From IMG/VR virus record IMGVR_UViG_2529292906_000014, positions 1-47,310 of that record: a stretch of 47,310 nucleotides of DNA; one strand, 5' to 3'. This document shows, in pieces, positions 1,369 through 47,310 of this stretch. Positions within the stretch are counted from its first letter, which is position 1. Each line of letters starts with the position of its first letter. Origin of the DNA: a virus. Its lineage: Duplodnaviria; Heunggongvirae; Uroviricota; Caudoviricetes. The translations under genes were made by a program, and so were the position numbers. The notes beneath the pieces are model-generated. The model was not told the origin of the DNA. It made no database searches and saw nothing but the letters and a program-made list of their open reading frames with translations.

Positions 1369-1444
1369 GCCGATATAGCTCAGTTGGTAGAGCAGCGCAT
1401 TCGTAATGCGAAGGTCGTAGGTTCGACTCCTATTATCGGCACCA
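1369..1444 (+). tRNA. thrW: tRNA-Thr (anticodon CGU)
   Basis: 76-nt sequence GCCGATATAGCTCAGTTGGTAGAGCAGCGCATTCGTAATGCG...TTCGACTCCTATTATCGGCACCA with cloverleaf features, CGT anticodon loop and CCA end; known P22-type attachment site. Confidence 0.95.
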
Positions 1445-13012: not shown

Positions 13013-13030
13013 CCCGGCTTAAGCCGGGGA
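13013..13030. terminator. 18-bp GC-rich perfect palindrome between convergent Q and NYN genes
   Basis: CCCCGGCTTAAGCCGGGG; contains the NYN stop codon; weak flanking T-runs. Confidence 0.4.
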
Positions 13031-18755: not shown

Positions 18756-18943
18756 CTGGTATGATGATGTTGAGAAGGCGGCACAGCAGGAGCTGTAATC
18801 GACGAGTGCTAATCTAGCACAATTGAGTTCACAAATTGTCTACTTTTGCTATATTGCAACCGATGCCAACAGCCTTTTTTGAGCAAAAATCATAAATGCT
18901 ATCGTGTTGGCAGTTTTTTTCTTTGACGACACGGAATGATTTT

Positions 18944-19366
18944 ATGTCAGAAGTAGCTGTTGAACTTGAAGAGGATTCTTGGCCTGACTTTTTCCCGGTT
19001 GGAGTACCGCCGAAATCAGCCGTCCCTGCTGAGGGCGAGTTTTTCCGTTTGGTAAGGTCTAATCCACCAACCCCTGCATGTTTCCTCTCTACACATGAAG
19101 AGTATCCGCAGCGGCACAAAAAGTATCGTGGGGAAGCACTTCAGTGTGTCTATGGAACATCATTCTTTTCAGAATCGCGCGGGGCTACGGATGCAAAAGC
19201 TAAATTTCCTGCAGCTCTTGGTCATCGACTCGTTGCTAGTGGTCAGGTCACCCCCGTTTTCGGAGTAATGAAAAAAACATTTGCCGATCCAGCGCACTAC
19301 ACAATTTGGCTTAAGCGTAATTGTGCTATTCATGAACATTTTCACTGTATAGGAGAAGGCGTATGA
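18944..19366 (+). CDS. hypothetical protein (141 aa), first gene of an uncharacterized two-gene cassette
   Basis: ATG at 18944 (MSEVAVELEEDSWPDFF); His/Cys-rich C-terminus (CAIHEHFHCIGEGV); stop overlaps the next start. Confidence 0.55.
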   Translation: MSEVAVELEEDSWPDFFPVGVPPKSAVPAEGEFFRLVRSNPPTPACFLSTHEEYPQRHKKYRGEALQCVYGTSFFSESRGATDAKAKFPAALGHRLVASGQVTPVFGVMKKTFADPAHYTIWLKRNCAIHEHFHCIGEGV

Positions 19367-23556: not shown

Positions 23557-23765
23557 ACCAGAATGATATCGAAGCCATGATTCAGCGTTATATGGAAGCT
23601 GAAATGGCGGTGCTGGACGGAAAATCCGTCACCTTTAATGGTCAGCAGATGACCATGGAAAACTTATCTGAGATCCGGCAGGGACGGCAGGAGTGGGAGC
23701 GCCGCCTTGCGGCTCTGATTACACGACGACGGGGGCATCCCGGGTACCGGCTGGCGAGGTTCTGA
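23553..23765 (+). CDS. W: head-tail joining protein, gpW-like
   Basis: About 70 aa; GGAGGA 8 nt upstream of the ATG at 23553; gene order terminase-W-portal. Confidence 0.7.
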   Translation: MNQNDIEAMIQRYMEAEMAVLDGKSVTFNGQQMTMENLSEIRQGRQEWERRLAALITRRRGHPGYRLARF

Positions 23766-25273
23766 TGGCAATTCTTGATGATGTGATTGGCGTTTTTTCA
23801 CCTGGATGGAAAGCGGCAAGGCTGCGTTCCCGTGCGGTGATCCAGGCTTATGAAGCCGTAAAAACGACGCGGACACACAAAGCCCGACGGGAGAACCGAA
23901 CTGCCGACCAGCTAAGCCAGTACGGGGCCGTGTCGTTACGTGAGCAGGCCCGTTACCTTGATAACAACCACGATCTGGTTATTGGTGTATTTGACAAGCT
24001 GGAAGAACGGGTGGTGGGGAAAAACGGGATTATTGTCGAGCCACATCCGGTATTACGCAATGGGGCCATTGCCCGTGATCTGGCAGCGGAGATTCGCACC
24101 CGATGGAGTGAATGGTCTGTCAGCCCGGAAGTCACCGGGCAGTTTACCCGTCCGATGCTGGAACGTCTGATGCTGCGTACCTGGCTGCGCGATGGTGAGG
24201 TGTTTGTCCAGATGGTTTCCGGGCGCATAAACAGCCTGACGCCTTCTGCCGGTGTTCATTTCTGGCTGGAGGCGCTCGAGCCAGACTTTATTCCCATGAC
24301 CAGTGATGAGAGCAACAGGCTGAATCAGGGCGTGTTTGTTGATGACTGGGGGCGTCCCGAAAAATATCTGGTGTATAAAAGCCGTCCCGTATCCGGACGG
24401 CAGATGGAAACCAAAGAAGTGGATGCAGAGCGAATGCTGCATCTTAAATTTGTTCGCCGTCTGCACCAGATGCGCGGGACGTCTTTGTTGTCCGGTGTGC
24501 TGATCCGCCTCAGTGCCCTGAAAGATTATGAAGATTATGAGCTGACTGCAGCAAGGATCGCCGCTGCTCTGGGGATGTACATCCGCAAAGGCGACGGGCA
24601 GAGCTATGAACCGGATGGTAATGGCAGCAAGGATAAGGAACGCGAGCTTACCATTCAGCCAGGCATTATTTACGACGATCTGAAACCCGGCGAAGAAATC
24701 GGAATGGTGAAGTCGGATCGCCCCAATCCTAACCTTGAAACTTTTCGTAATGGTCAGTTGCGTGCCGTGGCGGCGGGCAGTCGTCTGAGTTTTTCCAGTA
24801 CAGCGCGCAACTATAACGGCACTTACAGCGCCCAGCGTCAGGAGCTGGTTGAATCTACTGATGGCTACCTGATCCTGCAGGACTGGTTTATTGGTGCCGT
24901 CACCCGCCCGATGTATCGTGCATGGCTGAAACAGGCTGTGGCATCCGGTGTTATCAGGCTACCCCGCGATCTTGACCGTTCTTCACTGTATACCGCGGTG
25001 TATTCCGGACCAGTGATGCCGTGGATTGACCCTGTTAAGGAGGCTGAGGCCTGGAAAATCCAGATTCGTGGTGGAGCGGCGACAGAATCAGACTGGGTAC
25101 GTGCAGGTGGTCGTAATCCGGATGATGTCAAACGTCGGCGCAAGGCCGAAATTGATGAAAACCGCAAGCTGGATCTGGTATTTGATACCGATCCGGCCAG
25201 TGATAAAGGAGGCAGCAGTGCCGCAACGAAACGACAGGAGCCGCAGCACACCGACGACCAGTCCGAAGAATAA
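23765..25273 (+). CDS. portal protein (lambda gpB family)
   Basis: 502 aa from MAILDDVIGVF; start overlaps the W stop (TGATG). Confidence 0.85.
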   Translation: MAILDDVIGVFSPGWKAARLRSRAVIQAYEAVKTTRTHKARRENRTADQLSQYGAVSLREQARYLDNNHDLVIGVFDKLEERVVGKNGIIVEPHPVLRNGAIARDLAAEIRTRWSEWSVSPEVTGQFTRPMLERLMLRTWLRDGEVFVQMVSGRINSLTPSAGVHFWLEALEPDFIPMTSDESNRLNQGVFVDDWGRPEKYLVYKSRPVSGRQMETKEVDAERMLHLKFVRRLHQMRGTSLLSGVLIRLSALKDYEDYELTAARIAAALGMYIRKGDGQSYEPDGNGSKDKERELTIQPGIIYDDLKPGEEIGMVKSDRPNPNLETFRNGQLRAVAAGSRLSFSSTARNYNGTYSAQRQELVESTDGYLILQDWFIGAVTRPMYRAWLKQAVASGVIRLPRDLDRSSLYTAVYSGPVMPWIDPVKEAEAWKIQIRGGAATESDWVRAGGRNPDDVKRRRKAEIDENRKLDLVFDTDPASDKGGSSAATKRQEPQHTDDQSEE

Positions 25274-28513: not shown

Positions 28514-28911
28514 ACCGACATACACAAATCCGCCAGGTCGTACTGGCACGCCTTCGGGAACAGTGTGGAGACAGCGCCACGTTTTTTGACGGGCTTCCGG
28601 CATTTGTTGATGCGCAGGAACTGCCTGCCGTGGCGGTGTGGCTGAGTGATGCTCAGTACACCGGAAAAATGACGGATGAAGATGACTGGCAGGCTGTTCT
28701 GCATATTGCTGTCTTCATCCGGGCACAGGCACCGGATTCAGAGCTGGATATGTGGATGGAGAGCACCATTTTCCCGGCCCTGAATGATGTACCGGTACTT
28801 TCCGGACTCATCGACACCCTGATCCCACTCGGTTTTAACTATCAACGTGATAATGAGATGGCCACCTGGGCGATGGCGGAAATCACGTACCAGATCACGT
28901 ACACGAATTAA
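28498..28911 (+). CDS. U: tail terminator protein U (true start possibly 28510)
   Basis: Recognisable similarity to lambda gpU (...ATFFDG...PAVAV.L...YTG...). Confidence 0.8.
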   Translation: MADPMNRHTQIRQVVLARLREQCGDSATFFDGLPAFVDAQELPAVAVWLSDAQYTGKMTDEDDWQAVLHIAVFIRAQAPDSELDMWMESTIFPALNDVPVLSGLIDTLIPLGFNYQRDNEMATWAMAEITYQITYTN

Positions 28912-29665: not shown

Positions 29666-29685
29666 CAGGACGATACTCATCATTT

Positions 29686-29709
29686 GCCCCGGTTATCCGG
29701 GGCTTTTTT
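29686..29709 (+). terminator. intrinsic terminator after major tail gene
   Basis: GCCCCGG-ttat-CCGGGGC followed by T6. Confidence 0.7.
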
Positions 29710-29722
29710 GCAGGTGGAGAAC

Positions 29723-30112
29723 ATGATGTTTCTGAAACAGGGCACGTTTAATTATGAAAAGCAGTCCGTGGTGCTCAGTGAGCTGTCCGGGCTGCAGAGA
29801 ATTGAATATCTGGCGTTTGTTCAGCAGCGAACGGCAAAGTTTGATGCCGAAGAGGGAGAACTGCCGGAGGCTGAACGACAGATTGCTTTTCTGCGGATGG
29901 GGATGGATATCAATGCCTGGCTGGTTTCCCGCTCACTGTGGAATGCGGATCAGTCTAAGGATGTTGAGACGCTTTGCGCATCCGTTATTACAACATGGTC
30001 GTATGATGCCCTGGGAGCGGGGGCGGAGATGGTTCTGTCGCTGAGCGGTATGGGAGCCATTGAGAATGCCGGGGATTTGGAGCATGAGGTGCTGACGCCG
30101 GAAAAGTCCTGA
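29723..30112 (+). CDS. G: tail assembly chaperone G
   Basis: About 130 aa from MMFLKQGTFNYEK; followed by an overlapping -1 frame ORF as in lambda G/GT. Confidence 0.8.
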   Translation: MMFLKQGTFNYEKQSVVLSELSGLQRIEYLAFVQQRTAKFDAEEGELPEAERQIAFLRMGMDINAWLVSRSLWNADQSKDVETLCASVITTWSYDALGAGAEMVLSLSGMGAIENAGDLEHEVLTPEKS

Positions 30113-30450
30113 CGCGGGAAATGCAGTTTGTCATGCGGCTTGCCCGGGAGTTCCGGCGGGCAGACTGGCGGCGGATGCTGTCGGAAATGTCGGCCACTGA
30201 GCTTGGTGAGTGGGGCGATTATTTCCGGATGCAGAGCTTCAGTGATGTGTGGATGGATGCGCAGTTTGCCTCGCTGAAGGCATTGATCGTGAGAATGGTG
30301 TCCGGCAGCAGTGATGCTGCGGTGGCTGATTTCAGCCTTTTACCGGAAGAGAACGGGATACCGGAGCGAACGGACGAAGAACTGATGCATCTTGGGGAAG
30401 GTATTTCCGGAGGTGTGCGTTATGGACCAGATAGCCAACCTGGTCATTGA
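30088..30450 (+). CDS. T: tail assembly protein T, made as G-T fusion by -1 programmed frameshift
   Basis: -1 frame opens at 30088 inside the 3' end of G; A-rich CCGGAAAAG at 30098-30106 is the probable slip site. Confidence 0.6.
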   Translation, partial: GADAGKVLTREMQFVMRLAREFRRADWRRMLSEMSATELGEWGDYFRMQSFSDVWMDAQFASLKALIVRMVSGSSDAAVADFSLLPEENGIPERTDEELMHLGEGISGGVRYGPDSQPGH

Positions 30451-33400
30451 TTTGGGGATTGATGCGGCAGAGTTTAAAAATGAAATTCCCCGTATCAAAA
30501 ACCTTCTGAATGGTGCAGCCAGCGATGCAGAACGGTCTTCTGCCCGTATGCAGCGTTTTATGGAGCGTCAGACTCAGGCCGCCCGGCAGACAACGCAGGC
30601 GGCGTCTTCGGCTGCAACAGCCGCATCCGTCCATGCGCAGACGGTGGAGAAGAACGCACAGGCTCATGAACGCATGTCCCGCGAGGTGGAGAAAACCCGC
30701 CAGCGTATGGAGGCACTGAGCCAGAAAATGCGCGAGGAACAGGCGCAGGCCATGGCTCTGGCGGAGGCTCAGGATAAAGCAGCTGCTGCGTTTTATCGTC
30801 AGATTGACAGTGTGAAACAGGCCAGTGCGGGGCTGCAGGAATTACAGCGTATTCAGCAGCAGATCCGACAGGCCAGAAACAGTGGCGGGATTGGTCAGCA
30901 GGATTATCTGGCGCTGATTTCTGAGGTTACGGCGAAAACCCGTGTTCTTACGCAGGCTGAGGAAGAGGCTACCCGACAGAAAGTGGCGTTTATCCGTCAG
31001 CTTAAAGAGCAGGCAACCCGCCAGAATCTTTCTTCTTCTGAGTTGCTTCGTGCTAAGGCTGCCCAGCTGGGGGTAAGCAGTGCTGCAGAAGTGTATATCC
31101 GCAAAATGGAGCAGGCAGGAAAAGCCACGCATTCGCTGGGTCTGAAAAGTGCAGCGGCCCGCCAGGAGATAGGCGTTCTGATAGGTGAACTGGCCCGCGG
31201 CAATTTAGGTGCGCTGAGGGGATCCGGGATAACGCTGGCTAACCGTGCCGGATGGATAGACACACTGATGTCACCGAAAGGCATGATGCTTGGCGGGGTT
31301 ATTGGCGGTATTGCCGCGTCCGTCTATGGTCTGGGTAAAGCCTGGTATGACGGTCAGAAGGAGGGGGAAGAATTTAACCGCCAGCTGTCGCTGACGGGGC
31401 ATTATGCCGGAGTCACTGCCGGGCAGCTGTGGACGCTCAGTCGTGCTATTTCCGGGAATGGTATCACGCAACATGCTGCAGCCGGTGCGCTGGCTCAGGT
31501 GGTGGGGAGTGGTGCTTTTCGTGGAAACGATACCGGTATGGTGGCGAGAGCTGCTGCACAGATGGAGCGATCGGTTGGCCAGTCGGTCAGCGATACCATA
31601 AGTCAGTTTAAGCGGCTGAAGGATGATCCTGTAAATGCCGCGAAGGCTCTGGACAATGAGCTGCATTTTCTTACTGCCACTCAGCTTGAGCAGATACGCG
31701 TCCTTGGGGAGCAGGGGCGGTCCAGTGATGCTGCACGGATAGCCATGTCTGCACTGGCAGAGGAAACCGATCGTCGTACTGCGGATATTGATAATAACCT
31801 CAATGCGCTGGGTAGCACGCTGCAAACCTTGTCTGACTGGTGGAAGCAGTTCTGGGATGCGGCCATGAATATTGGTCGTGAAGACTCGCTGGATGAACAG
31901 ATTGCCGCTTTACAGGAGAAAGTATCGCGGGCGAAAAGACTCCCCTGGACGGCATCATCTTCTCAGGTTGAATACGATCAGCAGCGTCTTAACGATCTTC
32001 AGGAGAAAAAACGCCAGAAGGATTTGCAGGATGCAAAAGAGCAGGCAGAGCGGAATTATCAGGAGCAACAGAAACGCCGTAATGCTGAAAATGCTGCACT
32101 GAACCGGATGAATGAAACGGAAGCAGCACGGCATCAGCGTGAAATTGCGCGTATTAATGCCATGCAGTACGCCGATCAGGCTGTCAGGGATGCGGCGATA
32201 CAACGTGAAAATGAACGTTACGAGAAAGCCCTGGCATCCGGTAAGAAAAAACACGCGAAACCCGTAATGATGAGGCCACCCGGTTATTGCTGCAGTACAG
32301 TCAGCAACAGGCACAGGTGGAAGGGCAGATTGCTGCTGCAAGACAGTCAGCAGGCATTGCCACTGAAAAGATGACAGAAGCGCATAAACAGCTTCTGGCT
32401 CTGCAGCAGCGCATCAGCGATCTGGACGGGAAAAAACTGACGGCAGATGAAAAGAGTGTGCTGGCCCGTAAAGATGAACTGATTCAGGCACTGACGCTGC
32501 TGGATTTAAAACAGCAGGAGCTTCAGAAACAGACGGCACTCAACGATCTGAAGAAAAAAACAATTCAGCTGACCAGTCAACTGGCTGAAGAAGAGCGCGC
32601 TCAGCGTCAGCAACATGACCTGGATATCGCCACGGTGGGTATGGGTGATCAGCAGCGGCAGCGATATCAGGTACAACTGAGTCTTCGCCAGAAATACCAG
32701 CAACAGCTGGAGCAGTTGAGGCGGGATAGTGAGCAGAAAGGGACATATAACACGGATGACTACAGAAAGGCCGAGCAGGCGCTGACGGAGAGCCTGAACA
32801 GGCAACTGAATGAGAATCGCCGTTACTGGCAACAGCTTGAAATTGCTCAGGGTAACTGGAAAAACGGTGCCATGCGTGCATTTCAGGATTTTACCGTGGA
32901 TGCAGACAATACGGCAGGCACTGCTGAGCAGATGCTTACAGCGGCATTTAACAGTGCAGGTAATGCACTGGCAACCTTCTGTACCACCGGAAAACTGAAC
33001 TTCAAATCTTTTACCGCCTCGCTCCTTTCTGATCTGGCAAAAATCATGGCCCAGATGTCCATGATGCAGGCAGTTAAGGGGATTGGTTCGGCGTTTGGCT
33101 GGGGGAGTGCAGCAACTGCCAGTGTGACGCCCAATGCTGATGGTGGTGTTTATCAGTCTGCTGATTTGAGTCGTTACAGTGGCACGGTGGTTAACCGTCC
33201 GACGTTTTTTGCTTTTGCAAAAGGTGCAGGTGTGATGGGGGAAGCTGGGCCTGAAGCCATTCTGCCTCTGCGTCGTGGTGCTGACGGTAAGCTGGGGGTT
33301 GTGGCGGATATTGGTGGTTCAGGTATGGCGATGTTTGCCCCGCAGTACAACATTGAGATCAATAACGATGGCACGAACGGGCAGATAGGTCCGGCTGCCC

Positions 33401-33495
33401 TGAAGGTGGTTTATGACCTCGGGAAAAAAGCAGCAGCGGACTTTATGCAACAGCAGTCCCGTGATGGTGGTCTGTTCTCCGGAGGTGGACGATGA
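30422..33495 (+). pseudogene. H: tail tape measure protein (gpH-like), reading frame broken at an A6 tract near 32246-32251
   Basis: Two overlapping ORFs (30392-32374 and 32287-33495) in different frames; C-terminus ends ...INNDGTNGQIGPAALKVVYDL...DGGLFSGGGR like lambda H; one extra A in the A6 run restores a continuous coiled-coil frame. Confidence 0.75.
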
Positions 33496-33821: not shown

Positions 33822-34519
33822 TGCAGGATATCCGGCAGGAAACACTGAATGAATGCACCCGTGCGGAGCAGTCGGCCAGCGTGGTGCTCTGGGAAATCGA
33901 CCTGACAGAGGTCGGTGGAGAACGTTATTTTTTCTGTAATGAGCTGAACGAAAAAGGTGAGCCGGTCACCTGGCAGGGGCGACAGTATCAGCCGTATCCC
34001 ATTCAGGGGAGTGGTTTTGAACTGAATGGCAAAGGCACCAGTACGCGCCCCACGCTGACGGTTTCTAACCTGTACGGTATGGTCACCGGGATGGCGGAAG
34101 ATCTGCAGAGTCTGGTCGGCGGAACGGTGGTCCGGCGTAAGGTTTACGCCCGTTTTCTGGATGCGGTGAACTTCGTTAACGGAAACAGTGACGCCGATCC
34201 GGAGCAGGAGGTGATCAGCCGCTGGCGCATCGAGCAGTGCAGCGAACTGAGCGCGGTGAGTGCCTCCTTTGTACTGTCCACGCCGACGGAAACAGATGGC
34301 GCTGTTTTTCCGGGACGTATCATGCTGGCCAACACCTGCACCTGGACCTATCGCGGCGATGAGTGCGGTTATCACGGTCCGGCGGTCGCGGATGAATATG
34401 ACCAGACAACGTCCGATATCACGAAGGATAAATGCAGCAAATGCCTGAGTGGCTGTAAGTTCCGCAATAATGTCGGCAACTTTGGCGGCTTCCTTTCCAT
34501 TAACAAACTTTCGCAGTAA
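33821..34519 (+). CDS. L: minor tail protein L
   Basis: 232 aa lambda gpL-like with C-terminal Cys cluster. Confidence 0.9.
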   Translation: MQDIRQETLNECTRAEQSASVVLWEIDLTEVGGERYFFCNELNEKGEPVTWQGRQYQPYPIQGSGFELNGKGTSTRPTLTVSNLYGMVTGMAEDLQSLVGGTVVRRKVYARFLDAVNFVNGNSDADPEQEVISRWRIEQCSELSAVSASFVLSTPTETDGAVFPGRIMLANTCTWTYRGDECGYHGPAVADEYDQTTSDITKDKCSKCLSGCKFRNNVGNFGGFLSINKLSQ

Positions 34520-34524
34520 ATCCC

Positions 34525-35268
34525 ATGACAGAGACAGAATCAGCGATTCTGGCGCACGCCCGGCGATGTGCGCCAGCGGAGTCGTGCGGCTTCGTGGTGA
34601 GAACGCCGGACGGGGAAAGATATTTTCCCTGCGTGAATATCTCCGGTGAGCCGGAGGCGTATTTCCGGATGTCGCCGGAGGACTGGCTGCGGGCAGAGAT
34701 GCAGGGTGAAATTGTGGCGCTGGTCCACAGCCACCCCGGTGGTCTGCCCTGGCTGAGTGAGGCTGACCGGCGGCTGCAGGTGCAGAGTGATTTGCCGTGG
34801 TGGCTGGTCTGCCGGGGGACGATTCATAAGTTCCGCTGTGTGCCGCATCTCACCGGGCGGCGCTTTGAGCACGGGGTGACGGACTGTTACACGCTATTCC
34901 GGGATGCTTATCATCTGGCGGGGATTGAGATGCCGGATTTTCATCGCGAGGATGACTGGTGGCGTCACGGTCAGAATCTCTATCTGGATAATCTGGAGGC
35001 CACAGGGCTGTATCAGGTGCCGTTGTCATCAGCACAACCGGGCGATGTGCTGCTGTGCTGTTTTGGTTCATCGGTGCCGAATCATGCCGCCATTTACTGT
35101 GGTGATGGCGAGCTGCTGCACCATATTCCTGAACAACTGAGCAAACGAGAGAGGTATACCGACAAATGGCAGCGACGCACACACTCCCTCTGGCGTCACC
35201 GGGCATGGCACGCATCTGCCTTTACGGGGATTTACAACGATTTGGCCGCCGCATCGACCTTCGTGTGA
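34525..35268 (+). CDS. K: tail assembly protein K (JAMM/MPN plus NlpC/P60-like)
   Basis: 247 aa with JAMM motif HSHPGG...SEAD; lambda gpK-like. Confidence 0.9.
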   Translation: MTETESAILAHARRCAPAESCGFVVRTPDGERYFPCVNISGEPEAYFRMSPEDWLRAEMQGEIVALVHSHPGGLPWLSEADRRLQVQSDLPWWLVCRGTIHKFRCVPHLTGRRFEHGVTDCYTLFRDAYHLAGIEMPDFHREDDWWRHGQNLYLDNLEATGLYQVPLSSAQPGDVLLCCFGSSVPNHAAIYCGDGELLHHIPEQLSKRERYTDKWQRRTHSLWRHRAWHASAFTGIYNDLAAASTFV

Positions 35269-35837
35269 AAACGGGGGCTGAAGCCATCCGGGCGCTGGCC
35301 ACACAGCTCCCGGCGTTTCGTCAGAAACTGAGCGACGGCTGGTATCAGGTACGGATTGCCGGGCAGGATGTCAGCACGTCCGGATTAACGGCGCAGTTAC
35401 ATGAGGCCCTGCCTGATGGCGCTGTGATTCATATTGTTCCCAGAGTCGCCGGGGCCAAGTCAGGTGGCGTATTCCAGATTGTTCTGGGGGCTGCCGCCAT
35501 TGCCGGATCATTCTTTACTGCCGGAGCCACCCTTGCAGCATGGGGGGCAGCCATTGGGGCCGGTGGTATGACCGGCATCCTGTTTTCTCTCGGTGCCAGT
35601 ATGGTGCTTGGCGGTGTGGCCCAGATGCTGGCCCCTAAACCCAGAACTCCCCGTACACAGACAACGGATAACGGTAAGCAGAACACGTATTTCTCGTCAC
35701 TGGACAACATGGTTGCCCAGGGCAATGTTCTGCCTGTTCTGTACGGTGAAATGCGCGTGGGGTCACGTGTTGTCTCTCAGGAGATTAGCACGGCAGACGA
35801 GGGGGACGGTGGTCAGGTTGTGGTGATTGGTCGTTGA
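35166..35837 (+). CDS. I: tail assembly protein I
   Basis: 223 aa starting MAATHTLPLASPGMARICLYGDLQRFG, which I recall as near-identical to lambda gpI; overlaps the 3' end of K. Confidence 0.9.
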   Translation: MAATHTLPLASPGMARICLYGDLQRFGRRIDLRVKTGAEAIRALATQLPAFRQKLSDGWYQVRIAGQDVSTSGLTAQLHEALPDGAVIHIVPRVAGAKSGGVFQIVLGAAAIAGSFFTAGATLAAWGAAIGAGGMTGILFSLGASMVLGGVAQMLAPKPRTPRTQTTDNGKQNTYFSSLDNMVAQGNVLPVLYGEMRVGSRVVSQEISTADEGDGGQVVVIGR

Positions 35838-35897
35838 TGAAAAACGTTTTATGTGAAACCGCCTCAGGGCGGTTTTGTCGTTTCTGGAGCGAGAGGA

Positions 35898-38800
35898 ATG
35901 GGTAAAGGCAGCAGTAAGGGGCATACCCCGCGCGAAGCGAAGGACAACCTGAAATCATCCCAGATGCTGAGCGTGATAGACGCCATCAGCGAAGGGCCGG
36001 TTGAAGGTCCGGTGGATGGATTAAAAAGCGTGCTGCTGAACAGTACACCGGTGCTGGACAGTGAGGGGAATACCAACATCTCCGGTGTCACGGTGGTGTT
36101 CCGGGCAGGTGAGCAGGAGCAGACACCGCCGGAGGGTTTTGAATCCTCCGGCTCCGAGACGGTGCTGGGTACGGAAGTGAAATACGACACGCCGATCACC
36201 CGGACCATCACGTCTGCAAACATCGACCGTCTGCGTTTTACCTTCGGTGTGCAGGCACTGGTGGAAACCACTTCAAAGGGGGACCGGAATCCGTCGGAAG
36301 TCCGCCTGCTGGTTCAGATACAGCGTAACGGTGGCTGGGTGACGGAAAAAGACATCACCATTAAGGGCAAAACCACCTCGCAGTATCTGGCCTCGGTGGT
36401 GGTGGATAACCTGCCGCCGCGCCCGTTCAATATCCGGATGCGCAGGATGACACCGGACAGCACCACAGACCAGCTGCAGAACAAAACGCTCTGGTCGTCA
36501 TACACCGAAATCATCGATGTGAAACAGTGCTACCCGAACACGGCACTGGTCGGCGTGCAGGTGGATTCGGAGCAGTTCGGCAGCCAGCAGGTGAGCCGTA
36601 ATTATCATCTGCGCGGGCGCATTCTGCAGGTGCCGTCGAATTATAACCCGCTGACGCGGCAATACAGCGGTATCTGGGACGGAACGTTTAAGCCAGCATA
36701 CAGCAACAACATGGTCTGGTGTCTGTGGGATATGCTGACCCACCCGCGCTACGGCATGGGGAAACGTCTTGGTGCGGCAGATGTGGATAAATGGGCGCTG
36801 TATGTCATCGGCCAGTACTGCGACCAGTCAGTGCCGGACGGTTTTGGCGGCACGGAGCCGCGCATCACCTGTAATGCGTACCTGACCACACAGCGCAAGG
36901 CGTGGGATGTGCTCAGTGATTTCTGCTCGGCGATGCGCTGTATGCCGGTATGGAACGGGCAGACGCTGACGTTCGTGCAGGACCGACCGTCGGATAAGGT
37001 GTGGACCTATAACCGCAGTAATGTGGTGATGCCGGATGATGGCGCGCCGTTCCGCTACAGCTTCAGCGCCCTGAAGGACCGCCATAATGCCGTTGAGGTG
37101 AACTGGATTGACCCGGATAACGGCTGGGAGACGGCGACAGAGCTTGTGGAGGACACGCAGGCCATTGCCCGTTACGGTCGTAACGTCACGAAGATGGATG
37201 CTTTTGGCTGTACCAGCCGGGGGCAGGCACACCGCGCCGGGCTGTGGCTGATTAAAACGGAGCTGCTGGAAACGCAGACCGTGGACTTCAGCGTGGGCAC
37301 AGAAGGGCTTCGCCATGTACCGGGCGATGTCATTGAAATCTGCGATGATGACTATGCGGGCATCAGCACCGGTGGGCGCGTGCTGGCGGTGAACAGCCAG
37401 ACGCGGACACTGACGCTCGACCGTGAAATCACGCTGCCAGCCTCCGGCACCACGCTGATAAGTCTGGTTGACGGGCAGGGGAGTCCGGTCAGCGTGGAGG
37501 TTCAGTCCGTCACCGACGGCGTGAAGGTAAAAGTGAGCCGGGTTCCTGACGGTGTTGCTGAATACAGCGTGTGGGGGCTGAAGCTGCCGACGCTGCGCCA
37601 GCGCCTGTTCCGCTGCGTGAGTATCCGTGAGAACGACGACGGCACGTATGCCATCACTGCCGTGCAGCATGTGCCGGAGAAAGAGGCCATCGTGGATAAC
37701 GGGGCGCACTTTGACGGTGACCAGAGCGGCACGGTGAATGGTGTCACGCCGCCAGCAGTGCAGCATCTGACCGCCGAAGTCACTGCAGACAGCGGGGAAT
37801 ATCAGGTGCTGGCGCGATGGGACACGCCGAAGGTGGTGAAGGGTGTGAGCTTTATGCTTCGCCTGACTGTGGCAGCAGACGACGGCAGTGAGCGGCTGGT
37901 CAGCACGGCCCGGACGACGGAAACCACATACCGCTTCACGCAACTGGCGCCAGGGAACTACAGGCTGACAGTCCGGGCGGTAAATGCGTGGGGGCAGCAG
38001 GGCGATCCGGCATCGGTATCGTTCCGGATTGCCGCACCGGCAGCACCGTCGCGGATTGAGCTGACGCCGGGCTATTTTCAGATAACCGCAACGCCGCATC
38101 TTGCCGTTTATGATCCGACGGTACAGTTTGAGTTCTGGTTCTCGGAAAAGCGGATTGCGGATATCAGGCAGGTTGAAACCACAGCCCGCTATCTTGGTAC
38201 GGCGCTGTACTGGATAGCTGCCAGTATCAATATCAAACCGGGCCATGATTATTACTTTTATATCCGCAGTGTGAACACCGTTGGCAAATCGGCATTCGTG
38301 GAGGCTGTTGGTCAGCCGAGTGATGATGCATCCGGTTATCTGGATTTTTTCAAAGGCGAGATAGGGAAAACCCATCTGGCTCAGGAGCTGTGGACGCAGA
38401 TTGATAACGGTCAGCTTGCGCCTGACCTGGCTGAAATCAGGACGTCCATTACGGATGTCAGCAATGAAATCACGCAGACCGTCAATAAGAAACTGGAAGA
38501 CCAGAGTGCGGCAATTCAGCAGATACAGAAGGTTCAGGTTGATACAAATAATAACCTGAACAGCATGTGGGCTGTGAAGCTGCAGCAGATGCAGGACGGA
38601 CGCCTTTATATCGCGGGTATTGGTGCCGGTATTGAGAACACCCCTGACGGCATGCAGAGTCAGGTGCTGCTGGCGGCGGACAGGATTGCGATGGTTAATC
38701 CTGCGAATGGCAACACAAAACCGATGTTTGTTGGTCAGGGCGATCAGATATTCATGAACGACGTGTTCCTGAAACGCCTGACGGCCCCCACCATTACCAG

Positions 38801-39395
38801 CGGTGGAAATCCACCGGCATTTTCCCTGACACCGGACGGAAAGCTGACCGCTAAAAATGCGGATATCAGTGGCAGTGTGAATGCGAACGCCGGGACGCTC
38901 AACAATGTCACGGTAAATGAAAACTGTACGATTAAGGGCATGCTGGAGGCGACTCAGGTCAGAGGTGACTTCGTTAAAGCTGTATCCAAATCATTTCCGA
39001 AACAGGCTGGTACGTGGGGTAACACGGAAACACCAAACGGGACGGTTACAGTCACCATCAGCGATGATCATAACTTTGACCGTCAGATTATTATTCCGCC
39101 CATTATCTTTAACGGAATAGCGTATAGCGATCCGGGAAGTGGTAATAACCCGGGAGGTACAAGATACACGGGTTATGGTTTTGAAGTTCGCAAAAACGGT
39201 GTATTAATCGCATCCAGAGAAACTAAAGGGGCCATTCCCGGTAGCTACAGTGCGGTTATTGATATGCCGAGTGGCAGGGGAAGCGTCACTCTGGAGTTTA
39301 AGGTTTTCCATAAAGGCAATCAGCGGGCAGGTAATATCACCGACTGTACGGTGATTGTGACCAAAAAAGCCGCTTCCGGCATCAGTATTCGTTGA
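35898..39395 (+). CDS. J: central tail fiber / host specificity protein J
   Basis: About 1165 aa from [20 protein letters not shown]; lambda gpJ-like over the first roughly 1000 aa, divergent in the last roughly 150 aa. Confidence 0.9.
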
Positions 39396-39415
39396 AATTG
39401 TTATAACCCATATAA

Positions 39416-39441
39416 GGGCACCAGAAATGGTGCCTTTTTTA
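39416..39441 (+). terminator. intrinsic terminator after J
   Basis: GGCACC-agaaat-GGTGCC followed by T6. Confidence 0.7.
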
Positions 39442-39464
39442 TTGCAGAAAAGCGAGAGGTAATT

Positions 39465-40064
39465 ATGCGTAAACTTTATGCCGCCATTTTTTCCGCAGCC
39501 ATTTGTCTGGCCGTATCCGGTGCGCCTGCATGGGCATCTGAACATCAGTCCACGCTGAGCGCGGGGTATCTTCATGCCTCGACGAACGTTCCCGGCAGCG
39601 ATGATCTGAACGGGATTAACGTGAAATACCGTTATGAGTTTACGGACACACTGGGGATGGTGACGTCATTCAGCTATGCAGGAGACAAGAATCGCCAGCT
39701 GACCCATTACAGCGATACCCGCTGGCATGAAGATTCCGTTCGTAACCGCTGGTTCAGCGTGATGGCGGGGCCGTCTGTGCGCGTGAATGAATGGTTCAGC
39801 GCGTATGCGATGGCGGGTGTGGCTTACAGCCGTGTGTCGACTTTCTCCGGGGATTATCTCCGCGTAACTGACAACAAGGGGAAAACGCACGACGTGCTGA
39901 CCGGAAGTGATGACGGTCGCCACAGCAACACGTCTCTGGCGTGGGGAGCTGGCGTGCAGTTTAACCCGACCGAATCCGTGGCCATTGATATTGCTTATGA
40001 AGGCTCCGGCAGTGGTGACTGGCGCACTGACGGTTTCATCATGGGTGTCGGTTATAAATTCTGA
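39465..40064 (+). CDS. lom: outer membrane protein Lom (Ail/Lom family)
   Basis: 199 aa with signal peptide MRKLYAAIFSAAICLAVSGAPAWA and beta-barrel pattern; lambda Lom-like; between J and stf. Confidence 0.9.
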   Translation: MRKLYAAIFSAAICLAVSGAPAWASEHQSTLSAGYLHASTNVPGSDDLNGINVKYRYEFTDTLGMVTSFSYAGDKNRQLTHYSDTRWHEDSVRNRWFSVMAGPSVRVNEWFSAYAMAGVAYSRVSTFSGDYLRVTDNKGKTHDVLTGSDDGRHSNTSLAWGAGVQFNPTESVAIDIAYEGSGSGDWRTDGFIMGVGYKF

Positions 40065-40090
40065 TTAGCCAGGTAACACAGTGTTATGAC

Positions 40091-40117
40091 AGCCCGCCGG
40101 TTCAGGCGGGCTTTTTT
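40091..40117 (+). terminator. intrinsic terminator after lom
   Basis: AGCCCGCC-ggttca-GGCGGGCT followed by T6. Confidence 0.7.
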
Positions 40118-40128
40118 GTGGGGTGAAT

Positions 40129-43100
40129 ATGGCAGTAAAGATTTCAGGTGTACTGAAAGACGGCACAGGAAAACCGGTACAGAACTGCACAATCCAGCTG
40201 AAAGCAAAACGTAACAGCACCACGGTGGTGGTGAACACGCTGGCCTCAGAAAATCCGGATGAAGCCGGGCGTTACAGCATGGACGTTGAGTACGGTCAGT
40301 ACAGCGTTATTCTGTTGGTGGAAGGATTCCCGCCGTCACATGCCGGGACCATCACCGTGTATGAAGATTCCCGACCCGGTACGCTGAATGATTTTCTCGG
40401 TGCCATGACGGAGGATGATGCCCGTCCGGAGGCACTGCACCATTTTGAACTGATGGTGGAAGAGGTGGCGCGTAACGCGTCCGCGGTGGCACAGAACACG
40501 GCAGCCGCGAAGAAGTCAGCCAGCGATGCCGGCACATCAGCCCGTGAGGCGGCAACCCATGCGACTGATGCTGCAGGCTCAGCACGTGCAGCCAGCACAT
40601 CAGCCGGGCAGGCCGAGACGTCGGCTCAGTCAGCGTCTTCCAGCGCAGGAACGGCATCAACAAAGGCTACTGAAGCATCAAAAAGTGCTGCCGCTGCAGA
40701 GTCCTCAAAAAGCGCGGCGGCTACCAGTGCTGGTGCGGCGAAAACGTCAGAAACGAATGCTGCAGCGTCACAAAAATCTGCAGCCACTTCTGCATCCACC
40801 GTGACCACGAAAGCGTCAGAAGCTGCCACCTCAGCCCGGGATGCGGCGGCCTCAAAAGAGGCAGCGAAATCATCAGAAACGAGCGCCGCCTCGAGCGCCA
40901 GCAGCGCAGCTTCCTCGGCAACGGCGGCAGCAAATTCTGCGAAGGCGGCAAAAACGTCCGAGACGAACGCCAGGTCTTCTGAAACGGCAGCGGGACAGAG
41001 CGCCTCAGCTGCGGCAGGCTCAAAAACAGCGGCTGCATTATCTGCCAGTGCCGCGTCAACAAGTGCCGGGCAGGCCTCAGCCAGTGCCACCGCCGCCGGA
41101 AAATCGGCAGAAAGTGCTGCATCGTCTGCTTCAACAGCCACAACGAATGCTGGCGAAGCCGCTGTACAGGCCAGCGCAGCAGCGAAGTCTGCTTCCGCAG
41201 CGAAGACATCCGAAACGAACGCGAAAGCGTCGGAAACCCGTGCAGAATCCTCAAAAACGGCAGCCGCATCGTCCGCCAGTTCGGCAGCGTCATCGGCATC
41301 ATCTGCGTCTGCTTCAAAAGATGAGGCGACCAGACAGGCGTCAGCAGCGAAGGGTAGCGCCACGACGGCATCCACGAAGGCGACAGAGGCAGCTGGCAGT
41401 GCGACGGCAGCAGCTCAGAGCAAAACTGCTGCTGAATCCGCTGCGACCCGTGCGGAAGCTGCTGCTGATCGTGCTGAAGAGATTGCCGGTGCAGTTGCGA
41501 TGGAAGACGCAAGCCTTACAACTAAAGGTGTTGTGAAACTTAGCAGTGCTGTCGATAGCACCAGCGAATCACTGGCTGCAACTCCAAAGGCAGTTAAAGC
41601 TGCGAATGACAATGCGAATAGCCGATTGGCGAAGAATCAGAATGGCGCTGATATCCCAGACAAGGGCCGCTTCCTGAGTAACATTAATGTTTACAGCAAA
41701 GGTGAAGTGGATAAGAAAAAGGGGAAGCGAAAATACACTTTCTCTGCTCCTGCAAATGCAGTAAGCGGTAAGTGGTATCCTGTAGTCTTTCGCCGAACTG
41801 GTGGTGGCACAGATGAATTAGCCTCACGAGTGGTTATCACCACTTATTCCTCAGCTGGCGGATACGCCATGAATAATTGTGAATTTAATGGGTTTGTTAT
41901 GCCTGGCGGTTGGTCTGATCGCGGTTCATATGCGGCTGGTTTTTTCTCAATATATTCTACTGCTGAGCGAGCTATACACTCGATTATCGCAAGCGTGAAA
42001 GATGATGATTTGTGTAGTGTATTTTACGTTGAGACAAGAGCATTCCCTATCCAGATTTTTGCTGAGGAAGGATTAAATGTGATTGTTCCAACGGCTGATT
42101 ATGCAGTTGGTCAAACCACTTATAAGTGGGGGGCAACTGATCCTTTATCAGAAAGTACGAATGCACAGATAATTTTGGACTTTAAAAATGGACGAGGTTA
42201 TTACTGTTCACATCCATTTATTTCAAGTCTTTCAGGAAATGCTGCTACAGCCACGAAATTGCAGACGGCAAGATCTATCGGTGGAGTTGTTTTCGACGGT
42301 TCTGCAAATATTAACCTTCCAGGTGTAAACACTACGGGTAATCAGAACACCACTGGTAATGCTGCAACTGCTACAAAACTTCAGACGGTAAGAAAAATAT
42401 CCGGTGTTCCATTTGATGGTTCTACTGATATCACTTTAACCGCTGCGCATGTTGCCGCTTTCGCAAGAAGGGCAACAGGGTCATATGCGGATGCTGATGG
42501 TGGCGTGCCGTGGAATGCTGAATCTGGTGCTTACAATGTAACTAGAACAGGCGACAGTTATATTCTTGCCAACTTTTATACCGGAGTCGGAAGTTGCCGG
42601 ACCCTGCAGATGAAGGCGCATTACAGAAATGGTGGTCTGTTCTACCGTTCTTCAAGAGACGGTTATGGTTTTGAGGAAGGCTGGGCAGAAGTTTATACCT
42701 CGAAAAATCTTCCACCAGAAAGCTACCCAGTCGGCGCACCAATCCCGTGGCCATCAGATACCGTTCCGTCTGGTTATGCCCTGATGCAGGGGCAGACTTT
42801 TGACAAATCTGCCTACCCGAAACTTGCAGCCGCTTATCCGTCAGGCGTGATCCCTGATATGCGTGGCTGGACGATTAAGGGCAAACCCGCCAGTGGTCGT
42901 GCCGTATTGTCTCAGGAACAGGACGGCATTAAATCGCACACCCACAGCGCCAGCGCATCCAGTACGGATTTGGGGACGAAAACCACATCATCGTTTGATT
43001 ACGGCACTAAATCCACGAATAACACTGGTGCACATACCCATAGTATTAGCGGGACAGCAAATAGTGCCGGTGCGCACCAACACAAGAGTTCCGGTGCATT

Positions 43101-43416
43101 TGGTGGCACGAACACGAGCATTTTCCCTAATGGTTATACCGCGATTTCAAATCTAAGCGCGGGGATTATGAGCACAACAAGCGGTAGTGGCCAGACTCGT
43201 AATGCAGGGAAGACATCATCAGATGGTGCTCATACCCACTCGCTGTCCGGCACTGCTGCAAGCGCAGGCGCACATGCACATACTGTCGGTATTGGTGCTC
43301 ATACGCACTCCGTTGCGATTGGTTCACATGGACACACCATCACCGTTAACGCTGCTGGTAACGCGGAAAACACCGTCAAAAACATCGCATTTAACTATAT
43401 TGTGAGGCTTGCATAA
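40129..43416 (+). CDS. stf: side tail fiber protein Stf
   Basis: 1095 aa from [26 protein letters not shown]; long Ala/Ser/Thr-rich repeat region; C-terminal GAHTHS/GAHAHT His-box repeats ending [11 protein letters not shown]. Confidence 0.9.
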
Positions 43417-44000
43417 TGGCATTCAGAATGAGTGAACAACCACGGACCATAACAATTTATAATCTGCTGGCCGGAACTAATGAATTTATTGGTGAAGGTG
43501 ACGCATATATTCCGCCTCATACAGGTCTGCCAGCAAACAGTACCGATATTGCACCGCCAGATATTCCGGCTGGCTTTGTGGCTGTTTTCAACAGTGATGA
43601 GGCATCGTGGCATCTCGTTGAAGACCATCGGGGTAAAACGGTCTATGACGTGGCTTCCGGCGACGCGTTATTTATTTCTGAACTCGGCTCATTACCGGAA
43701 AATGTCACCTGGTTATCCCCGGAAGGGGAGTTTCAGAAGTGGAACGGTACAGTCTGGGTGAAGGATACGGAAGCAGAAAAACTGTTCCGGATCCGGGAGG
43801 CGGAAGAAACAAAAAACAGCCTGATGCAGGTAGCCAGTGAGCATATAGCGCCGCTTCAGGATGCTGTAGATCTGGAGATTGCAACGGAAGAAGAGGCGTC
43901 GTTGCTGGAAGCCTGGAAGAAGTATCGGGTGTTGCTGAACCGTGTTGATACATCAACTGCACCTGATATTGAGTGGCCTGCTGTCCCTGTTATGGAGTAA
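43416..44000 (+). CDS. tfa: tail fiber assembly protein Tfa
   Basis: 194 aa; start overlaps the stf stop; lambda Tfa-like. Confidence 0.9.
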
Positions 44001-44222
44001 TCGTTTTGTGATATGCCGCAGAAACGTTGTATGAAATAACGTTCTGCGGTTAGTATATTGTAAAGCTGAGTATTGGTTTATTTGGCGATTATTATCTTCA
44101 GGAGAATAATGGAAGTTCTATGACTCAATTGTTCATAGTGTTTACATCACCGCCAATTGCTTTTAAGACTGAACGCATGAAATATGGTTTTTCGTCATGT
44201 TTTGAGTCTGCTGTTGATATTT

Positions 44223-45354
44223 CTAAAGTCGGTTTTTTTCTTCGTTTTCTCTAACTATTTTCCATGAAATACATTTTTGATTATTATTTGAATCAATTCC
44301 AATTACCTGAAGTCTTTCATCTATAATTGGCATTGTATGTATTGGTTTATTGGAGTAGATGCTTGCTTTTCTGAGCCATAGCTCTGATATCCAAATGAAG
44401 CCATAGGCATTTGTTATTTTGGCTCTGTCAGCTGCATAACGCCAAAAAATATATTTATCTGCTTGATCTTCAAATGTTGTATTGATTAAATCAATTGGAT
44501 GGAATTGTTTATCATAAAAAATTAATGTTTGAATGTGATAACCGTCCTTTAAAAAAGTCGTTTCTGCAAGCTTGGCTGTATAGTCAACTAACTCTTCTGT
44601 CGAAGTGATATTTTTAGGCTTATCTACCAGTTTTAGACGCTCTTTAATATCTTCAGGAATTATTTTATTGTCATATTGTATCATGCTAAATGACAATTTG
44701 CTTATGGAGTAATCTTTTAATTTTAAATAAGTTATTCTCCTGGCTTCATCAAATAAAGAGTCGAATGATGTTGGCGAAATCACATCGTCACCCATTGGAT
44801 TGTTTATTTGTATGCCAAGAGAGTTACAGCAGTTATACATTCTGCCATAGATTATAGCTAAGGCATGTAATAATTCGTAATCTTTTAGCGTATTAGCGAC
44901 CCATCGTCTTTCTGATTTAATAATAGATGATTCAGTTAAATATGAAGGTAATTTCTTTTGTGCAAGTCTGACTAACTTTTTATACCAATGTTTAACATAC
45001 TTTCATTTGTAATAAACTCAATGTCATTTTCTTCAATGTAAGATGAAATAAGAGTAGCCTTTGCCTCGCTATACATTTCTAAATCGCCTTGTTTTTCTAT
45101 CGTATTGCGAGAATTTTTAGCCCAAGCCATTAATGGATCATTTTTCCATTTTTCAATAACATTATTGTTATACCAAATGTCATATCCTATAATCTGGTTT
45201 TTGTTTTTTGAATAATAAATGTTACTGTTCTTGCGGTTTGGAGGAATTGATTCAAATTCAAGCGGAATAATTCAGGGTCAAAATATGTATCAATGCAGCA
45301 TTTGAGCAAGTGCGATAAATCTTTAAGTCTTCTTTCCCATGGTTTTTTAGTCAT
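44223..45354 (-). pseudogene. AT-rich cargo gene of unknown function (about 375 codons), broken by two frameshifts at A/T homopolymers
   Basis: Minus-strand coding signal continues across three frames (45354-45187, 45186-44968, 44967-44223); shifts occur at AAAAACAAAAACC and GGTATAAAAAG; about 30% GC. Confidence 0.45.
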
Positions 45355-46135
45355 AAAACTCTCCATTTTGATAGGTTGCATGCTAGATGCTGATATATTT
45401 TAGAGGTGATAAAATTAACTGCTTAACTGTCAATGTAATACAAGTTGTTTGATCTTTGCAATGATTCTTATCAGAAACCATATAGTAAATTAGTTACACA
45501 GGAAATTTTTAATATTATTATTATCATTCATTATGTATTAAAATTAGAGTTGTGGCTTGGCTCTGCTAACACGTTGCTCATAGGAGATATGGTAGAGCCG
45601 CAGACACGTCGTATGCAGGAACGTGCTGCGGCTGGCTGGTGAACTTTCGATAGTGCGAGTATTGAATGATTTCCAACTGTTATCGATTTTGCGTATTTTT
45701 TGCATGAGAGGATTTTTACCTCCTCCCACCGATCCTCCATGGCTTTACGCCAGTGTCTCTGGTCTGCTATGTGCCAGGAGCAGCCATTGCTAAGTCCATC
45801 CTGTATTGTGCAGGTCAGCTCGTTTTTAAAGAGTCCGGCCATCATCTTACTGGTACAGACACCATATACTTTGTGACGGTCAGGCTACATATGCACAACT
45901 CAACTTATTCATCTATTTTTTGCTTTAGCATGTCAGTGTTGCTTTCTCGTCGGCGGGTGAGCGGTGACCTGACTTGTCGATAAAGGAACGTAGCACGTTT
46001 TATGCAACACCCGCATGCGGCAGAAAATTATTGCCGAACGTTTACCCCTGTCAACAAGCTTTACTTTCTGAGGCGCGCCAGCCCGCGAGGAAAACAATCT
46101 GAACATCAAACAATTAATGACACAAGAAATACGAT

Positions 46136-46162
46136 TAAAGATTTTTTTGTGCATGCCGATAG
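46136..46162 (+). promoter_or_regulatory. sigma-28 (FliA) class 3 promoter
   Basis: TAAAGATT, 11-bp spacer, GCCGATAG versus consensus TAAAGTTT-N11-GCCGATAA; AAGGAG RBS and ATG follow at 46186. Confidence 0.6.
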
Positions 46163-46185
46163 TGCTTTTTTAAAAGGAGAAATCT

Positions 46186-46518
46186 ATGTCTGTCACAATT
46201 CAGGGAAATACCTCAACCGTTATTTCAAACAACTCCGCCCCGGAAGGAACATCAGAAATAGCCAAAATCACAAGACAAATTCAGGTGCTGACTGAAAAGC
46301 TTGGGAAAATCTCATCGGAAGAGGGGATGACGACACAGCAGAAAAAAGAAATGGCTGCATTGGTACAGAAGCAAATTGAAAGCCTCAGGGCTCAACTGGA
46401 GCAGTTGTTAAGGCAGCAGGCAGAGAAAAAGAATGAAGACGCGACAGTTCAGCCTGATAAAAAAGAAGAGAAAAAAGACGATACAAATACCGCTGGCACC
46501 ATTGATATTTACGTCTAA
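46186..46518 (+). CDS. flxA: FlxA-like coiled-coil protein (FliA-regulated prophage cargo)
   Basis: 110 aa, low-complexity Lys/Glu/Gln-rich coiled coil; size and the sigma-28 promoter match flxA of the K-12 Qin prophage. Confidence 0.65.
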   Translation: MSVTIQGNTSTVISNNSAPEGTSEIAKITRQIQVLTEKLGKISSEEGMTTQQKKEMAALVQKQIESLRAQLEQLLRQQAEKKNEDATVQPDKKEEKKDDTNTAGTIDIYV

Positions 46519-46878
46519 GTGACAGCCGTATTGTGGCCCTCATCGGGCCACTTTTCGCCATCAGCCTTTTCTTTAAAGACATATTATCTTTGTATCATTT
46601 CTGATAGTTAACATTACAAGATATAAGTAATGGACGCACTCCCAATTAGTCTATTTAAATCGCCACGAGTTTAACTGACAACCCATGATCAATTATGAAT
46701 TGCAACTATTTCTGTAGTCACTTTTGTGGGGACAGTCCACAAAACTGCCAACTTCCGCTTCTTGCTCATAGCGGACCTTACAACCACCTGATTGGTCCGC
46801 TCCGTGTCAGGAGCGGATACCGTAAGCATTTTATCCTCTGGAGGGGCATCCCTTTCAAGAAATGCATCCGTTGTGGAT

Positions 46879-47310
46879 TTATGCAACACCTGAAGCTACT
46901 AACAAAGAACAATTTGTCTGACCAAAGGCATTTTTTAGCAGCGGGAAAAGAGGGGGAAGTTCCGTTAGCGATTTTAGAGGCTTGAGGCTCTTAAGTGATT
47001 TAAGTGATGGCAAATTAGGTGTGGTAACCATGTCTTTTACTGCACAGGCAACATAGCCATCGTGATCAATCAACATACCATTAGTAAACCAGCCTAAATG
47101 ATTCCCATTGAATCCATAAACATCAAACTCATTGTTCTGGTTATGTTTAAGGTAGGCGCTTGGTTCACCCTCCCAACTATATAAAGTCAACTCGTCATCA
47201 AGTGAAATATAAACGACGGCGTTGCCTTGATTATCATATAGATCTAGGTCATTACTCGCAGTAACACAAGCTGAGAAAAGAAACATAACTAGCACGAGTG
47301 ATTTTTTCAT
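46879..47310 (-). CDS. putative secreted protein or lipoprotein; start at window edge, 3' extent uncertain
   Basis: N-terminus MKKSLVLVMFLFSACVTAS (signal peptide with a Cys at a lipobox-like position); C-terminal part reads through simple repeats (KSLKSLKPLKSL). Confidence 0.4.
   Translation of the reverse strand: MKKSLVLVMFLFSACVTASNDLDLYDNQGNAVVYISLDDELTLYSWEGEPSAYLKHNQNNEFDVYGFNGNHLGWFTNGMLIDHDGYVACAVKDMVTTPNLPSLKSLKSLKPLKSLTELPPLFPLLKNAFGQTNCSLLVASGVA

Follow-up and report, generated by a model that had tools for sequence, protein, structure and literature searches.

Phage lambda ea47, interrupted by three single-base frameshifts in the draft sequence of a thrW prophage of Escherichia coli DEC6A, and the possible role of its family

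ea47 in the right arm of a thrW prophage

The DNA that we analyzed, which we will call the window, is 47,310 nt long. At its left end, the order is proA, thrW (tRNA-Thr CGT, 1369..1444), and integrase. In the source contig, at least 48 nt from the 3' half of thrW are repeated in direct orientation about 336 nt past the end of the window, and this repeat is attR. The window thus corresponds almost exactly to a single lambdoid prophage of about 46 kb, integrated at thrW. Positions 34223-47310 are 100% identical, without gaps, to contig AIFV01000004.1 from the draft genome of E. coli DEC6A (GCA_000249595.2). Past attR, the contig contains a yagP-like LysR remnant and then a four-gene xanthine-dehydrogenase-type cluster, which we take to be paoABCD. 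The thrW/proA site is presumably also the site of the cryptic prophage CP4-6 in E. coli K-12.

The cargo of the right arm lies between the tail fiber assembly gene (tfa) and attR. The features at this end of the prophage are:

43416..44000, plus strand: tfa, tail fiber assembly, 194 aa (homolog of lambda orf-194), convergent with ea47
44125..45354, minus strand: ea47 coding region with three frameshifts (1230 nt here, 1233 nt if intact)
45355..45800, minus strand: lambda-homologous region upstream of ea47; the homology stops at about 45800 (lambda 24365)
about 45732-45983: small hypothetical gene, further cargo inside attR
46186..46518: flxA, further cargo inside attR
46879..47310, minus strand: gene for a "4-fold beta flower" protein, further cargo inside attR

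The original prediction was that an AT-rich minus-strand gene lies downstream of tfa, is split over several frames, and was acquired as an accessory gene. This holds up. The GC content of 44000-45500 is 0.30-0.33, whereas that of the flanking tail genes is about 0.50; the gene is in a cargo position; and its homologs are lone cargo in many mobile elements.

The family had not been recognized, but the gene is already known: the coding signal at 44125..45354 is ea47 of phage lambda (lambdap80, NP_040606.1, 410 aa), and the source record already labels it so. (The depositor's name for the truncated fragment is "protein ea47 [Escherichia coli DEC6A]".) Using megablast against annotated phages, all 1451 bases of the query matched lambda 22611-24064 with 99.7% identity. 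The same 99.7% match was found to HK629, HK630, and other records of lambda-type phages, and the query was 3 nt shorter than every matched phage subject. We also aligned the region base by base to lambda (NC_001416) and to the chromosome of E. coli PS1Phumofeces1 (PS1). There are exactly four differences from lambda in the ea47 region. One is a synonymous substitution (T>C at 45265), which PS1 shares. The other three are deletions of a single A on the coding strand, in runs of seven, six, and eight (A7->A6, A6->A5, and A8->A7). If one base is added to each run, then the product is 410 aa and is 100% identical to NP_040606.1, with no amino-acid changes. Given 99.7% identity of the DNA and 100% identity of the repaired product, the match to lambda Ea47 is far beyond chance. 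The repaired reading frame also matches PHROG 19262 across residues 1-410 (E = 2.6e-295).

As deposited, the sequence has no single uninterrupted reading frame of about 410 aa, because of three -1 frameshifts:

45204..45209, minus strand: frameshift 1, A6 on the coding strand (T6 on the plus strand) versus A7 in lambda and PS1, codons 50-51
44977..44981, minus strand: frameshift 2, A5 versus A6 in the reference, near codon 127
44233..44239, minus strand: frameshift 3, A7 versus A8 in the reference, codons 374-376

Thus, the predicted shifts in A/T homopolymers are confirmed, but their number and the extent of the gene are not. The gene had been placed at 44223-45400, with about 375 aa and two shifts over three frames; it actually runs from 45354 to 44125 and encodes 410 aa, and three shifts (frame path 0 -> 2 -> 1 -> 0) leave four fragments. 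Frameshift 1 closes the first fragment, which reads MTKK...FIIQK and then TKTRL*. Frameshift 3 makes a false C-terminus, "...WKIVRENEEKNRL" ("...EEKNRL*"), which had been taken for the end of the protein. It hides the last 35 codons (44232..44125), which are back in the original frame; the true C-terminus of Ea47 is "...EEKKPTLEISTADSKHDEKPYFMRSVLKAIGGDVNTMNN". The list of open reading frames includes co-linear minus-strand entries of 64, 52, and 205 aa, and a precomputed tag for PF26900 (Phage_lambda_Ea47) is attached to the 52-aa and 205-aa fragments as well as to the cluster representative.

The setting of ea47 is much as in lambda. Homology to lambda extends over 43279-45800 of the window (lambda 21836-24365), which includes the region upstream of ea47. 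tfa ends at 44000 and the stop codon of ea47 is at 44125-44127, about 125 nt downstream; this convergent arrangement is common to lambda, HK629, and PS1, and the AT-rich composition is shared with lambda. Unlike lambda, the window's prophage is a thrW-integrated mosaic. The homology ends before lambda's ea31 and ea59, which are absent from the window; the small hypothetical gene, flxA, and the "4-fold beta flower" gene are in their place. The closest match in setting is the ea47 of PS1 (WP_000162952.1, in NZ_CP180609.1), which is also at thrW, has the same order of genes (tfa, ea47, hypothetical, flxA, beta flower), and has the same synonymous C variant. It differs in having A7, A6, and A8 at the three runs in ea47 and an intact tape-measure gene.

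The record for HK629 annotates a sigma-70-like promoter that maps to about 45403-45433, which is an annotator's consensus match only. It was not among the sites from our local sigma-70 scan. In that scan, promoter-like sites were no more common than in shuffled sequence, and no terminator was found.

Other parts of the window also appear to carry cargo. There is a probable cargo gene on the minus strand at 13019-13894, downstream of the Q antiterminator gene, which matches a gene for a NYN-domain protein in strain F5505-C1. Another probable cargo locus, at 18896-20655 between the lysis genes and terminase, is a pair of a hypothetical gene and a DUF6575 gene. (The names for both loci are from the relative's annotation.) The gene for the 1097-aa tail fiber (40123..43416) contains a long low-complexity stretch at 40500-41500 that is rich in Ala, Ser, and Thr, with a GC content of about 0.61 and a strong AT skew. 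The identity of this gene to stf of lambda is only 70-88%, and the source's gene caller split it differently.

Losses in A/T runs and the broken frame

To compare indels across the window, we used the finished genomes of F5505-C1 (for 1-24500) and PS1 (for 24501-47310), and we counted clean indels outside of locally divergent patches. We found five clean indels relative to these closest relatives. All five are 1-nt losses in A/T runs, and there are no gains. Three of the losses are in ea47. The others are:

32246..32251, plus strand: A7 in PS1 -> A6, in the tape-measure gene; splits it into reading frames at 30392..32374 and 32287..33495
28910..28911, plus strand: AA versus AAA in the relative; intergenic, with the genes for the major tail protein and the minor tail U-family protein on either side

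The loss in the tape-measure gene, at a homopolymer, had been reported in the original prediction. The gene is intact in PS1, and the tail module is otherwise well conserved. This break is separate from the natural frameshift of the G/T chaperones, which lies upstream (reading frames at 29684..30112 and 30121..30450).

A further difference from PS1, at 44054 in the spacer between tfa and ea47, is not at a homopolymer: the window has one copy of TTAG and PS1 has the tandem TTAGTTAG. This is a 4-nt change of the slippage type.

Relative to the nearest relatives, the rate of loss climbs with the length of the A/T run:

A/T runs of 5 nt: 0/104 shortened
A/T runs of 6 nt: 1/54 shortened
A/T runs of 7 nt: 2/15 shortened
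A/T runs of 8 nt: 1/1 shortened
G/C runs: 0/38 shortened

The same kind of loss is seen in an unrelated sequencing run. A contig from ERR975176, with the lambda context ea59-ea31-ea47, has no substitutions relative to lambda and five deletions of a single A in A-runs. Among the affected runs are A6 and A8 of ea47, together with an A5 run that adjoins the window's A7 run. Since the same A6 and A8 deletions recur in ERR975176, it appears that the A-runs of ea47 are repeatedly under-called. Two records, AIFV01000004.1 and the ERR975176 contig, contain exactly the truncated product of 205 aa, and the exact frameshifted junction had no match among the GTDB species representatives. Intact versions are common: as the original prediction had suggested checking, a related strain (PS1) has an intact ea47 in the same setting, and about 120 complete genomes of E. 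coli contain ea47 at 99% identity or above.

Because every clean indel is a -1 change in an A/T run, the rate of loss rises with the length of the run, and the losses recur in ERR975176, we think that a sequencing artifact is the likeliest explanation. The three deletions in ea47 are quite probably due to under-calling of homopolymers in a draft assembly from the 2012 era, rather than to real mutations. This agrees with the earlier suggestion that the gene is either a pseudogene or mis-sequenced, perhaps with systematic error. If so, then ea47 of DEC6A would be intact and would encode the 410-aa Ea47, with one A missed in each of the A7, A6, and A8 runs. (The DEC genomes may have been sequenced on a homopolymer-sensitive platform, but we do not use this as evidence.)

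It is also conceivable, although we consider it unlikely, that the deletions are real slipped-strand mutations, in which case ea47 would be a pseudogene undergoing decay, and the prophage, with its broken tape-measure gene, would be defective. The decay could have followed an episode of mismatch-repair deficiency, or there could have been selection against a costly gene. The deletions are denser in ea47 than elsewhere: they affect 3 of its 7 A/T runs of 6 nt or more, versus 1/63 in the rest of the window (p = 0.0024, Fisher's exact test). A rough stratification by length, done by hand, gave p ~0.01, so p ranges from ~0.002 to ~0.01. Also, there are no homopolymer indels in 1-24500 of the window relative to F5505-C1. 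This concentration of deletions in ea47 could reflect its AT-rich context, low coverage, or real decay. Decay would also fit with the tolerance for loss of ea47, since it is non-essential, and with the polymorphism of the A8 run in other assemblies. Specifically, the deletion at frameshift 3 (the A7 type) recurs on a different allele background in MBS8593532.1. An A9-type allele, whose product (WP_236268581.1) is 387 aa long and has a different tail, is found on eight contigs with RefSeq WP accessions. On the other hand, there are just two substitutions relative to PS1 in 42000-47310 (5.3 kb), and no amino acid of ea47 is changed, so three independent real frameshifts would have had almost no time to arise. 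Mutation spectra from repair-proficient E. coli imply that substitutions should outnumber indels in runs, yet ea47 has three indels and no amino-acid substitution. Furthermore, all five events (5/5) are deletions, the same deletions were found in lambda reads from an unrelated run without any substitutions, and the assembly that the window comes from is an early draft.

If the split frames were functional, they might be joined by programmed ribosomal frameshifting or by transcriptional slippage at the A-runs. A-runs of seven or more can support transcriptional slippage, and the net shift over the three sites is -3, which returns the last segment to frame 0. However, a single uninterrupted, otherwise identical reading frame is present in lambda, in PS1, and in about 120 genomes of E. 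coli, the relatives across genera are all single reading frames of about 410 aa, and three consecutive obligatory events would give a negligible yield. With the frameshift not conserved in lambda, PS1, or the cross-genus relatives, we rejected programmed recoding, which seems extremely improbable. Nor do the fragments seem to be separate small genes with independent functions. Gene callers do list reading frames of 64, 52, and 205 aa, but no fragment has a family of its own: all are co-linear on one 410-aa protein, they share the PF26900 tag, and the relatives are single genes. We rejected this explanation as well, and we give it next to no credence.

With an assembly error as the most likely cause, the broken reading frame bears on the sequence record and not on membership in the Ea47 family. 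The "unknown disrupted cargo gene" is a false alarm: the gene is ea47 of lambda, and the best reading of its breaks is that a draft genome from 2012 contains errors at homopolymers. For this reason, other frameshifts in the DEC6A assembly, such as the one in the tape-measure gene, should not be over-interpreted.

The length of the A8 tract, which lies toward the 3' end of ea47, varies (A7, A8, or A9) among public assemblies and among allele backgrounds. In view of this variation, the run may also be a true hotspot for slippage.

The Ea47 protein family

What remains of interest is the function of the Ea47 family, rather than this locus. Homologs of the repaired protein are abundant. We found 1,308 representatives (clustered at 50% identity, E <= 1e-3), including proteins from Vibrio, Shewanella, Pectobacterium, Cronobacter, Citrobacter, Aeromonas, Azoarcus, and other genera. 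The relatives are very uniform in length (about 400-445 aa). They have their own family in Pfam (PF26900, from precomputed tags) and their own PHROG (19262, of unknown function).

Searches against other families gave little. When we scanned Ea47 and 62 relatives against Pfam-A (a local copy, scanned without PF26900), NCBIfam, and PADLOC, we found only chance-level hits. In particular, the HMMs of PADLOC-DB 2.0 gave no hits for Ea47 itself and three weak hits across the 62 family members (best E = 0.002). A profile search against the sequences in PDB had no hits at E <= 10. Foldseek against PDB had none at E <= 0.001, and its weak GAF-like hits were not significant.

Using the 62 homologs, we obtained a confident AlphaFold2 model (pLDDT 89.5, pTM 0.88), in which the N-terminal module is helical and the C-terminal module is alpha/beta. 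In the alignment of the 62 sequences, the invariant residues are mostly in the first 96 positions, and they include R83-N84-x2-E87-K88-x-G90-D91. A second invariant cluster comprises D297, K301, R306, E325, W327, and E347. Ea47 may resemble HEPN toxins and RNases (the HEPN-MNT toxin, 7ae2; SO_3166, 5yep; and Csm6, 6tug). We take this as a likeness at the level of the fold only, because the Rx4-6H motif of HEPN proteins is not present: in the alignment of the 62 sequences, residues 1-190 contain no invariant or nearly-invariant histidine.

A few relatives are longer (P0194, P0240, P0252, P0255, P0215, P0227, and P0281). In these proteins, a SEC-C zinc motif and TPR or TPR-Sensor repeats come after the Ea47 module. 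The PADLOC hits for the long relatives fall on the SEC-C motif only, so they are uninformative for the Ea47 module. One long relative has an N-terminal fusion to DUF5677.

Genomic contexts of the relatives and a possible role

The relatives of ea47 are lone genes without a conserved partner, and their settings are diverse:

Vibrio misgurnus: single cassette in an integron-like array
Pectobacterium: integrase-bounded island with AbiTii, FRG, DUF5677, and a UvrD helicase
Citrobacter: end of a Mu/P2-like prophage
V. parahaemolyticus: directly after a prophage integrase
Cronobacter: nin region of a lambdoid prophage, between P and ninB
Aeromonas: lone insertion among housekeeping genes

In the Pectobacterium island, the gene that adjoins the ea47 relative encodes DUF5677 (9439-10272 of locus L007).

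Among viruses, the neighbors on 15 contigs from non-lambda phages include integrases, Ogr/Delta regulators, and P2-type tail genes. On the same 15 contigs, there were strong matches of neighbors to Drt4, to the specificity subunit of a type I system, and to several of PADLOC's candidate systems (PDC). From this list of neighbors, a defense-gene neighborhood for the relatives of Ea47 is suggestive only.

In the literature that we searched, no function is reported for Ea47, which places it among the lambda genes still in that position. It is a non-essential gene of the lambda b region in a CRISPRi map of essentiality (PMC10695390), and it appears in a list of yeast two-hybrid interactions, as N-Ea47 and U-Ea47 (PMC3224144). 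The remaining mentions describe ea47 as a convenient, non-essential site for insertions.

Ea47 is similar in several ways to the defense genes that are found as "morons" or at hotspots in prophages, such as rexAB of lambda, old and tin of P2, and the Septu-like ea59/ea31 (discussed below). Like these, it is non-essential, AT-rich, and located at a variable site near prophage ends; it moves horizontally as a single gene; and it is found beside recognized defense genes. Unlike them, Ea47 does not match any PADLOC model, and its role in defense is our hypothesis. Because Ea47 behaves as a mobile, stand-alone moron, and such genes are often involved in conflict or defense, we tentatively propose that Ea47 might be a stand-alone conflict or anti-phage protein that is expressed from the prophage. 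We regard this as a serious possibility that falls somewhat short of being probable. The highly conserved helical bundle at the N-terminus would act as the effector, joined to the C-terminal alpha/beta module. This idea is cheaply testable, and it draws on the locations of the relatives at prophage ends, in an integron-like array, and in Abi islands, and on their fusions to SEC-C/TPR-Sensor and DUF5677.

A broader and more doubtful proposal is that the Ea47 family (about 1,300 clusters at 50% identity, from Proteobacteria and temperate phages) might be an uncatalogued single-protein system for anti-phage defense or abortive infection. In this proposal, the module with R83-N84-x2-E87-K88, which would have a HEPN-like fold without the histidine, would be a new kind of effector. 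The C-terminal alpha/beta half would sense infection, and SEC-C and TPR-Sensor repeats would take over this role in the long relatives. The A8 tract, close to the gene's 3' end, might serve as a natural switch that is prone to slippage. Finally, the b region of lambda could be a defense islet with two systems, ea47 and the Septu-like ea59/ea31.

As for ea59 and ea31 (92-2556 of locus L001, outside the window), we did not find a paper in the literature we searched that links these lambda genes to Septu. Lambda Ea59 matches the model for PtuA of Septu (E = 5e-184), and Ea31, an HNH protein, matches the PADLOC candidate PDC-M01B (E = 6e-113). This Septu-like pair adjoins ea47 in the b region of lambda.
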